A stretch of 64,000 nucleotides of DNA from Candidatus Babeliales bacterium (GTDB lineage: Bacteria; Babelota; Babeliae; Babelales; Vermiphilaceae). This document shows, one piece after another, positions 4,897 to 6,192 of the stretch. Under the pieces are notes generated by a model. The model saw nothing but the letters and a program-made list of their open reading frames with translations, searched no databases and was not told where the DNA came from. The stretch is from NCBI GenBank assembly GCA_963743635.1, contig CAVUQO010000002.1, forward strand, positions 268,110 to 332,109, given 5' to 3'. Every line of letters starts with the position of its first letter. Position 1 is the first letter of the stretch. A program made the translations under genes and the position numbers.

Positions 4897-6192
4897 ATGA
4901 AATTTATAACACAATTAGTATTAGTATCAATGGTCCTTACTGGCCAATCGATATCCGCTATGAGCGCAAAAGCACTGGCGGCTTATAGAGAGCGTGAAAT
5001 GGCAGGAAGAACAGAGCAAGCCTCTGCAGCTTCAAGCAGCTCATCATCGTCCTCATCAGCGAGCAGTCAATCATCAGAAGGGGAAGCGCGTAGACCTAAA
5101 GGAAAACGAGCTTTAACGCGTCAAGAATTGACACAGATGGAACAACAAGAAAAAGCAGCCATAGAGGCACTAAAATTGGCAGAAAAAGCAGCGTATGAAG
5201 CAGAGGATAAAGCAAGAGAAGAAGCAAAAAAACTCGAAGCATTAGCTGCAGAATTGGCACAAGAAGAGTGGAATTTGGAAAGGCAAGCTGCAGAGAAACT
5301 TGCAAAGCAAGATGAAGAATTAGCGAAACAATTGCAAAAACAAGCAAGTATTGAAGCAAAAGAAGAAGAATTGAATACTCTTAAACAGCAGCAGCAGATT
5401 GCAGAAAAAGATGCGCTGTTAGCGAAGCAATTGGCAGAGCAGGTAGAGGCAGAAGCGCAAGAGCTTAAGCAGCGAATTGCCGAAGATGAAGAACTAGCGA
5501 GAAAATTAGCTGAAGAAAGTGGCCCTTCTGGTCAGTCGAGTGCGAGTAGTTCTTCACAAGCGGCCGAGCTCCAGCAGTGCGGCATTTGTATGGAAGACGT
5601 TGAGCCGCAGAATATGGTAAATCTTGCATGTCAGCATGCCTATTGCCGTGGATGTTTGACTCAGCTTGTTGAAACCGGTCTTAAGGAAAAAAATATTGAA
5701 GGTATTAAGTGCCCAACGTCTGAATGTAATGCTCCAATGACCCGGGCAGATATTTTTGATATTACGCAAAATCCTGCAAAAGTTGAGGAATATAATGCTA
5801 TCGCTACCGAGACAGCCCTACCTAAGCTGCAAGGTATCAGGCAGTGTCCTACGGCGAACTGTCCATACCAATTTTTAAATGAAGCAGATGAGACTCAGGA
5901 AACGCGGTGTCCTATGTGCACAAAGCGCTATTGCGCAAACTGCTTAAAAGAGCACAGTGCTCGCATGTCGTGCGAACAAGCGGCAGCTGACGCGGCAATG
6001 ACCTCAGATGATCGGGAGCGGGCAACGGAAGAATGGAAAAAAACACACACAAAGCCATGTCCGAAATGTAACGTTTCAATTGAGAAAGATGCAGGATGTA
6101 ATCATATGAGATGCATAACTCCTAGCTGCAGCCACCAGTTTTGTTGGGTGTGTAAACAGCCATGGAACGCAGACCATTACCGCTGTCAGTGA
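4897..6192 (+). CDS. secreted-looking coiled-coil protein with a C-terminal RING1-IBR-RING2 (RBR) E3 ubiquitin-ligase-like module
   Basis: N-terminus [21 protein letters not shown], then a poly-Ser tract and an E/K/A/Q-rich region. RING1: [26 protein letters not shown]...[21 protein letters not shown]...[23 protein letters not shown]. Rcat: [43 protein letters not shown]. Confidence 0.85.
   Translation: [431 protein letters not shown]

Follow-up and report, generated by a model that had tools for sequence, protein, structure and literature searches.

The 64-kb stretch of DNA analyzed here (the window: 64,000 nucleotides, positions 268,110 to 332,109 of contig CAVUQO010000002.1 from a Candidatus Babeliales bacterium) carries on its plus strand a gene for a 431-residue protein in which a signal-peptide-like N terminus and a long predicted helix precede a RING1-IBR-RING2 (RBR) module, the arrangement known from a class of eukaryotic ubiquitin ligases (E3s). 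The gene and its parts are collected in Table 1. A preliminary description made from the letters alone had proposed, for this open reading frame (ORF), a complete RING1-IBR-RING2 module with every ligand in place and a GCNHM motif bearing the catalytic cysteine, all of which is borne out. The C-terminal 204 residues hold the full RING1-IBR-Rcat module, in which all 24 zinc ligands are present with the spacings originally given, the Cys and His ligands align to RBR profiles and structures, and Cys401 and His403 align to the GCNHM of human ARIH2.

Table 1. The RBR gene and associated features, in window coordinates and in residue numbers of the 431-residue protein
Feature	Position	Strand	Details
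Cassette: promoter, gene, hairpin; between small upstream ORF and rluB	4649..6373	+	Missing from congeneric L038
Promoter-like site TTGAAA-17 nt-TATAAT with TG extended -10, sigma-70-type	4806..4834	+	11/12 consensus positions; consensus match alone
Ribosome-binding site AGGGAG, 5 nt 5' of the ATG	4886..4891	+	Sequence inspection
RBR ligase gene	4897..6192	+	431 aa plus stop codon, ATG start (ORF list)
Residues 1-21, signal-peptide-like, predicted signal peptidase I type junction A21↓M22	4897..4959	+	Hydrophobicity
Residues 41-70, Ser-rich predicted disordered linker with poly-Ser 46-59 inside	5017..5106	+	pLDDT <50, full-length model
Residues 75-207, single predicted 133-residue helix rich in E/A/L/Q/K	5119..5517	+	AlphaFold pLDDT ~96
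Motif 1, D139, DEELAKQLQ, MIU-like, central Ala143	5311..5337	+	
Motif 2, D172, DALLAKQLA, MIU-like, central Ala176	5410..5436	+	
Motif 3, D197, DEELARKLA, MIU-like, central Ala201	5485..5511	+	
RING1, C3HC4, predicted E2-binding domain	5578..5727	+	C228, C231, C245, H247, C250, C253, C272, C277
IBR domain, C6HC, two zinc sites	5845..5973	+	C317, C322, C338, C341, C346, C349, H353, C359
Rcat/RING2	6058..6186	+	C388, C391, C406, C411, C416, C419, H427, C430
Codons of catalytic Cys401 (tgt), Asn402 and His403; motif G400-C-N-H-M	6097..6105	+	Aligns to ARIH2 GCNHM
G+C-rich hairpin GCCCCCUU...AAGGGGGC 3' of the stop codon	6220..6252	+	RNA fold

The assignment is carried by several kinds of comparison. 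In Pfam, IBR_2 (2e-13), IBR (4e-13, residues 297-359) and IBR_1 (9e-13) match above the curated cut-offs, as do zf-RING_UBOX (7e-7) and zf-C3HC4 (9e-6) for RING1, and IBR_2 and IBR_1 cover residues 382-426. When the protein is compared by phmmer with all sequences of the Protein Data Bank (PDB), human ARIH2 comes first at an E value of 6e-31, with residues 226-430 joined to ARIH2 137-340 in one alignment at about 31% identity; it is followed by ARIH1 (1e-26) and then by CUL9, Parkin, RNF216, HOIL-1, and HOIP. The AlphaFold model of residues 220-431 has a mean predicted local distance difference test score (pLDDT) of 82, and the structural comparison that had been suggested as a check gives a consistent picture, as Foldseek places ARIH2 first among PDB folds at 3e-14 and the top 50 are all RBR ligases. 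A full-length model, built with an 81-sequence family alignment, reaches a mean pLDDT of 87.6, with most of the RBR part above 90. RING1, IBR, and an Rcat with a nonligand cysteine are thus found contiguous and in order, with the RBR fold, and by every sequence and fold criterion tried the window protein belongs to the RBR family.

The Ariadne ligases ARIH2/TRIAD1, ARIH1/HHARI, and CUL9 share with the window protein the order RING1-IBR-Rcat, the zinc ligands, and the GCNHM motif. They are its best matches in both sequence and fold, and the presumed chemistry, in which ubiquitin would pass from a charged ubiquitin-conjugating enzyme (E2) to a cysteine thioester and on to a substrate, may well be alike. 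However, Ariadne ligases possess a C-terminal Ariadne domain, which masks the catalytic Cys, whereas the window protein stops at residue 431, one residue past its last ligand, and no Pfam match to the UBA-like UBA_ARI1 domain was obtained before RING1 in the window protein. What it has instead is an export-like signal followed by a linker rich in Ser and a predicted helix of 133 residues, and its gene is bacterial. Membership in the Ariadne subfamily was therefore considered and rejected, despite the Ariadne-like core, as neither the Ariadne nor the UBA-like domain is present. Parkin, HOIP/RNF31, HOIL-1/RBCK1, and RNF216 have the same three-domain module and fold but are farther away in sequence, and none of their accessory domains (Ubl/RING0, LDD, NZF, UBA) is found in the window protein.

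When one genome from each bacterial and archaeal species was scanned, RBR relatives turned up at 14 loci. By their record titles, these lie in several "uncultured bacterium" metagenome-assembled genomes (MAGs), a Dependentiae single-cell genome, and two "Pseudomonadota" MAGs; Parendozoicomonas isolates in culture and a MAG of Endozoicomonadaceae are represented too, and an Oscillospiraceae MAG and a Sediminibacterium MAG gave matches that are weaker or partial. Among the MAG contigs, L008 carries an RBR relative together with a polynucleotide phosphorylase (PNPase) of Dependentiae type. For a broader search, the RBR part was used as the query, since the full-length protein is swamped by its low-complexity helix and scored 3 matches. 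With HMMER, over 1.84 billion cluster representatives, 12,127 matches were obtained at an E value of at most 1e-3 and 138 at an E value of at most 1e-30, the best family matches being 35-46% identical to the window protein. Expressed as bits for a single domain, the first 156 matches, of bacterial type, score 118-200, human ARIH2 109, other eukaryotes 53-80, and Endozoicomonadaceae 46-53. Two very long top matches are eukaryotic multi-RBR proteins (plant and Tetrahymena), which rank high only because several domains are summed. The members with a public name are designated either [quoted passage not shown] or [quoted passage not shown]

A phylogeny places the window protein in a bacterial clade apart from the sampled references: in a rough neighbor-joining tree with sparse sampling of eukaryotes, 156 of the 181 sequences group with it, to the exclusion of all sampled eukaryotic, giant-virus, and Endozoicomonadaceae references. 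Conservation within the family was counted in an alignment of 81 members that are 24-39% identical to the window protein. It contains 21 strictly invariant positions, given as 20 zinc ligands plus Gly400-Cys401. The seven Cys ligands of RING1 are among them (H247 is kept in 76/81), as are all eight IBR ligands and Gly400-Cys401 (81/81 for each), while C416, C419, and C430 are, like H247, kept in at least 90% of members and H427 aligns uncleanly. The family consensus retains CxIC and CP in RING1. The Ariadne domain (PF19422) occurs in none of the 81 relatives nor in the window protein, whereas the eukaryotic matches do have it. The family profile favors ARIH2 (5e-50), ARIH1 (4e-47), and CUL9 (2e-32) far over HOIL-1, HOIP, Parkin, and RNF216 (2e-25 to 1e-17), and the RBR core can therefore be called Ariadne-like.

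Beyond the conserved core, the family is varied. Ankyrin repeats accompany the module in 12 of the 81 members. One locus (L037) has two RBR genes (3700-6324 and 10001-11098) beside ClpB and a ParE toxin, and its 874-aa protein combines RBR modules with a DnaJ domain; paired RBR genes are found again at L011 (6768-7376, 8937-9506) and L012 (6715-7320, 8001-8702). These neighboring copies and the DnaJ fusion indicate paralogue expansion and domain shuffling. At L005, the context is likewise bacterial, with a penicillin-binding protein transpeptidase, DeoC, and ankyrin and WD40 proteins. As judged from these comparisons, the gene is most likely one member of a large, old, and diversified bacterial RBR family that stems from an Ariadne-like eukaryotic RBR core. 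The preliminary description had spoken of horizontal transfer or mimicry. Homology to eukaryotic RBRs stands, while convergent mimicry does not, and neither does a one-off acquisition by this genome, in view of an old family with at most 46% identity. The possibility that this genome recently received the gene straight from a eukaryote was considered and is unsupported, as the nearest relatives are bacterial, the eukaryotic references score lower per domain, and the base composition of the gene is unremarkable.

Complete RBR modules are also found outside this clade. Proteins of 417-625 aa from Endozoicomonadaceae (Parendozoicomonas callyspongiae, P. haliclonae, and a MAG; L014-L017) include those of cultured isolates, the Parendozoicomonas isolates being sponge-associated gammaproteobacteria. 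They are 25-30% identical, score below the eukaryotic Ariadnes, and fall outside the Dependentiae-type clade; their N-terminal regions are long and show no obvious signal peptide, some of the proteins have a second, upstream Cys-rich region, and on these comparisons they probably represent an independent acquisition. Among other parasites of protists, giant viruses (Klosneuvirus, Hokovirus, Fadolivirus, Yasminevirus, and Megavirus with an "ariadne-like ring finger protein") carry annotated RBR modules, which give fold matches to an E value of 5e-15 and which fall outside the bacterial clade as well; contigs of giant-virus MAGs match at 24-30% identity.

The N-terminal half also agrees with what had been claimed for it, with a hydrophobic N terminus, a Ser tract, and one uninterrupted predicted helix rich in E, A, L, Q, and K. 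The best 12-residue hydrophobicity window in the N terminus scores 2.35, and the junction SISA↓MS (the arrow marks the predicted cut) fits the -3/-1 rule for signal peptidase I. A signal-peptide-like segment is present in 107 of the 150 best matches. An [AGS]-M junction directly behind the hydrophobic core, usually followed by E, N, D, or Q, occurs in 54 of 105 signal-bearing members (those left once the cluster of the query and the two long multi-RBR proteins from eukaryotes are removed), compared with 3.6% of background windows. In the recurrent form, a K/R-rich start leads into some 12-15 residues of hydrophobic core, after which comes [A/G]↓Met-[D/E/N/Q]; family members that show it are found among P0166-P0313. 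The same form recurs on unrelated ORFs of the window, at 35545, 36999, 38276, and 39148 on the plus strand and at 53038-53514 and 53602-54516 on the minus strand, and many window ORFs have signal-like N termini. The form might represent a signal peptidase site characteristic of the phylum, or else a motif for sorting.

Three of these ORFs, in tandem at 35545-36789, 36999-38090, and 38276-39151 (+), are paralogues that join ankyrin repeats to a C-terminal RING-H2 domain (zf-RING_2 at 3e-14, 4e-14, and 3e-12), with N termini such as …QMQG↓MD and …CVSA↓MN. By their domain content, they are candidates for further eukaryote-type E3s of the same genome. Other proteins of the window have a SAP domain (E 1e-7; 45842-46471, minus strand), ankyrin repeats (54557-55318, minus strand), and tetratricopeptide repeats (31950-32918, minus strand).

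The predicted helix between the linker and the module, which could be either a coiled coil or a single alpha-helix, is followed by a short flexible linker (residues 208-217 in the full-length AlphaFold model). It carries three copies of D-[EA]-[EL]-L-A-[KR]-[QK]-L-[QA], against 0.0005 expected in shuffles of the region. These copies resemble what we take to be the consensus of the motif interacting with ubiquitin (MIU). The MIU is a helical motif in which acidic residues are followed by Φ-x-x-L-A-x-x-L-Q/A, with a critical central Ala, and it binds the Ile44 patch of ubiquitin. The helix further has a weak, subthreshold Pfam match to the MIU-containing family CCDC50_N (E 0.0033). A possible ubiquitin-binding role for the helix is offered here as a lead only.

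The gene is furnished with plausible bacterial expression signals of its own. The near-consensus promoter proposed earlier holds up as a sequence match, with agreement at 11 of 12 positions and an extended -10 TG, and the ribosome-binding site lies 5 nt before the start codon (Table 1). The region 6190-6275, downstream of the coding sequence, folds with -26.2 kcal/mol and a z-score of -2.3; the hairpin within it is a probable terminator of the RBR gene, although a simple terminator scan missed it. As the GC content (0.452) and the GC content at third codon positions (GC3, 0.356) are both inside the range of neighboring genes, the gene shows no sign of recent foreign origin. Four independent assemblies (L001-L004) contain a gene for exactly this protein of 431 aa; the samples that carry it are GCA_052915985.1, SRR34865000, ERR10755947, and SRR31840415, and a second allele (P0001) differs by the substitutions G37R and E378A only.

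The neighboring genes are commonplace in bacteria. Upstream, two thymidine kinase genes lie around radA; downstream follow genes for an RluB-type pseudouridine synthase, MscS, MurA, AtpG, and TsaE and a tRNA cluster, and further on rpmG-secE-nusG-rplKAJL-rpoBC, PNPase, RNase PH, and GlmM. L001, an independent assembly of the same strain at 99.7% identity, keeps the rluB-mscS-murA neighbors. The window has many 1-bp indels, three of which were confirmed by comparison with L001, at 7030, 7850, and 8230; as a consequence of these, rluB, mscS, and murA are broken. In the window, rpoB, rpoC, radA, and one of the thymidine kinase genes are split into many short ORFs (15300-24000 and 1540-4080) but are intact in the relative L038; the split genes are most likely the result of long-read errors and not pseudogenes. 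The PNPase gene (24911-26995) is intact, with closest relatives that are 90-94% identical, and every named relative of it (65-69% identity) is from Candidatus Dependentiae or Babeliales. The contig, of 594 kb, is bacterial and belongs to Candidatus Dependentiae/Babeliales.

Some observations on these neighbors may be noted. The two thymidine kinase genes that flank radA (1584-2280 and 3624-4004, both on the minus strand) have counterparts in L038 (6748-7419 and 8724-9350), and the pair may be connected with the salvage of nucleotides by a bacterium that depends on its host. The tRNA genes at 11790-12815 (Tyr, Gly, Thr(tgt), Thr(ggt), and Trp) stand directly before rpmG-secE-nusG, with no tuf between tRNA-Thr and tRNA-Trp in this cluster; in many bacteria tuf is commonly found between these two. 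Over the rpoB region (15001-20000), the GC content is 0.355-0.374, compared with 0.416 for the whole window.

Comparison with the congeneric genome L038 (78-86% nucleotide identity) helps to define the unit in which the gene occurs. L038 has the same order of thymidine kinase, RadA, thymidine kinase, small ORF, RluB, MscS, and MurA through to rpoB, with the stop codon of the small ORF about 10 nt before rluB, and the RBR gene is found nowhere in its 20.7 kb. One species thus has a 1.7-kb cassette that its relative lacks, and on this gene order the RBR gene reads as a self-contained, variable accessory cassette. The small ORF that adjoins it upstream (4154-4648, plus strand) has a signal-like N terminus, an AGRPQ motif, and a C-terminal run of 16 Asp, and gave no family match. 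Its counterpart by position in L038, a weak positional orthologue, is 20% identical yet keeps AGRPQ and the acidic tail, so that the small ORF appears to encode a fast-evolving secreted protein.

When these results are placed into the context of the organism, a function can be proposed. Cultivated Dependentiae (TM6) are intracellular parasites of protists (PMC6561590, PMC4378268), and in Chromulinavorax, in which 44% of proteins have signal peptides, Sec-dependent export of effector candidates has been proposed (PMC6561590). From the sequence and fold comparisons, we consider it probable that the gene encodes a catalytically competent RBR-type E3, which an obligate intracellular member of Candidatus Dependentiae/Babeliales would make for use in its protist host. 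Residues 1-21 would direct Sec-dependent export, with cleavage after Ala21, and the protein would then get to the host cytosol by a route not yet described for the phylum. By homology, RING1 (residues 228-277) would bind a ubiquitin-charged host E2 of the UbcH7/UBE2L3 kind, ubiquitin would be handed to Cys401 of Rcat as a thioester, and His403 would assist its transfer to an amine of the substrate. More speculatively, the helix (residues 75-207), with its three DEELAxxLQ/A motifs, might serve in oligomerization or in binding of a target, possibly ubiquitin itself. As the Ariadne and UBA-like domains are missing, neither autoinhibition of the Ariadne type nor dependence on neddylated cullins for activation would be expected. 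The host-targeting effector that the preliminary description had in mind is consistent with the lifestyle, with the export-like N terminus seen across the family, and with the other candidate eukaryote-type E3 genes in the window.

Several observations weigh against such a role or against parts of it. A Sec route would place 24 zinc-binding Cys and His residues in the periplasm, with no known means of passage across the outer membrane or a host membrane, and the N-terminal segment could be a membrane anchor and not a cleaved signal. His403 is kept in only 48 of the 81 relatives. With regard to the helix, residues 125-211 have no meaningful sequence match in the PDB, so that solved structures give the MIU view no support, and a similar motif is present in just 1 of 151 other family members scanned. 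The neighbor-joining tree, being rough, does not settle the origin of the family or the direction of transfer.

An uncleaved N-terminal segment would make the protein a surface-anchored or periplasmic RBR that acts, if at all, at the interface of bacterium and host, for example, through exposure on the envelope or in outer-membrane vesicles. Such vesicles have been described in Chromulinavorax infection (PMC6561590), no translocation system has been identified, the full-length AlphaFold model draws residues 2-44 as one continuous helix, and some relatives (L012 and L013) have C-terminal hydrophobic segments. Nevertheless, the fit of the junction to the -3/-1 rule, its enrichment in the family over background, and a disordered Ser linker followed by a long helix, as is typical of a released soluble protein, make anchoring an unlikely alternative to release, if one worth keeping in mind. 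The variability of His403 could instead be taken to indicate that the protein is a noncatalytic decoy, which would sequester charged host E2 or ubiquitin chains or compete with host Ariadne ligases; the helix may bear ubiquitin-binding-like motifs, and bacterial effectors that block E2 enzymes exist. However, Gly400-Cys401 and the Rcat ligands are invariant or nearly so in 81 diverged relatives, which is hard to explain without selection for catalysis, and the window protein itself has the full GCNHM; we therefore regard a decoy as improbable.

A function within the bacterial cell itself, either alongside a ubiquitin-like conjugation system of its own or in zinc binding or redox chemistry unrelated to host ubiquitin, deserves mention because ubiquitin-like conjugation systems exist in some bacteria and export is predicted from sequence. 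In that respect, the earlier statement that bacteria have no ubiquitin system was too absolute as a generality. In the window, no gene for a ubiquitin-activating enzyme (E1), an E2, or ubiquitin or a ubiquitin-like protein was seen within its 64 kb. This absence, the export-like N terminus, the dispensability of the gene in a congeneric genome, and the concentration of the family in host-dependent bacteria, where it is often fused to ankyrin repeats, leave an intrabacterial role very improbable. Finally, the gene could belong to a host protist and have been misjoined to the contig by contamination or chimeric assembly, as the window is error prone (the indels relative to L001, the shattered rpoB and rpoC) and the domain is otherwise typical of eukaryotes. 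Against this, the protein recurs unchanged in four assemblies, L001 shows bacterial neighbors on both sides of the join, the gene is intronless with a bacterial promoter-like site, ribosome-binding site, and probable hairpin terminator, GC and GC3 are in the range of the neighbors, and the closest relatives lie on bacterial contigs and MAGs. With the housekeeping flanks and the Dependentiae-type PNPase, the contamination that had been raised as a point to check is answered in favor of a bacterial gene, and a eukaryotic or chimeric origin was rejected on the grounds of independent assemblies, synteny, expression signals, and composition; we attach almost no probability to it.

The reading that we favor, a secreted and catalytically competent RBR ligase, has parallels in better-known pathogens. 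Bacterial E3 effectors include HECT-like SopA/NleL, NEL-type IpaH/SspH, and SidC/SdcA, all of which are Cys dependent, and further the RING/U-box proteins LubX, NleG, AvrPtoB, and GobX and the F-box protein AnkB. The concept is the same, in that the intracellular bacterium brings along an E3 with which ubiquitination in the host is redirected, and the HECT-like, NEL, and SidC classes form a thioester on a catalytic Cys, as would be expected for the window protein. None of them is an RBR, however, and they mostly depend on type III or type IV secretion, as opposed to the Sec-type-looking signal found here. Reviews on bacterial E3 effectors list RBR solely as a host class (PMC8003559, PMC11430079). 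Within the phylum, Babela massiliensis has a F-box protein, a RING finger protein, secreted ubiquitin hydrolases, and Ulp1-like proteases (PMC4378268), and in its genome paper there are 0 occurrences of RBR or IBR (PMC4378268). It is alike in lifestyle, in its many ankyrin-repeat proteins, and in having secreted proteins aimed at host ubiquitin signaling; by analogy, the RBR family would add a self-sufficient, thioester-forming class to the ubiquitin-related set of the Dependentiae.

In the literature, where subscription journals were thinly covered and absence is therefore unproven, we found no description of a bacterial RBR ligase, "bacterial RBR" returning rubrerythrin only. NCBI already labels some bacterial relatives "IBR domain-containing protein," and a 2026 preprint mentions in a general way that gene trees of the ubiquitin system include Dependentiae and Chlamydiota. 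What is new here is a known enzyme class in a new setting, with a stripped-down, signal-bearing architecture and a large unrecognized family, and the concept fits a familiar pattern, in which intracellular bacteria capture E3 modules from eukaryotes.

Taking the individual leads together, it could be speculated, although we hold this fuller scenario to be a long shot, that Dependentiae built a large family of constitutively active ligases with Sec signals out of an Ariadne-like RBR core, the first bacterial E3 effectors of RBR class, delivered by a route that is undescribed. In the protein of the window, the helix, about 20 nm long and bearing the three MIU-like motifs, might then read existing host ubiquitin in place of a classical domain for substrate binding, and the enzyme might extend or edit chains in an E4-like manner on targets already tagged, for example, the surface of the parasite or its compartment.

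Eukaryotes have three canonical classes of E3, of which the RBRs are one, and the eukaryotic RBR enzymes are hard to study because they are autoinhibited. If the proteins described here are active, all three canonical E3 classes would have been captured by bacteria, and the family would offer naturally minimal RBR enzymes without autoinhibitory domains, useful for work on mechanism and structure. The finding is valuable to the ubiquitin and effector fields. The shared signal form, with A/G↓M-D/E/N/Q after a hydrophobic core, could aid prediction of the effector repertoire of the phylum. The presence and absence of the gene between congeneric genomes marks it as part of a fast-turnover accessory set, of the kind expected to set host range, and, if active, the ligase would provide a handle on host manipulation and effector export by the Dependentiae, which are widespread and barely studied parasites of protists.

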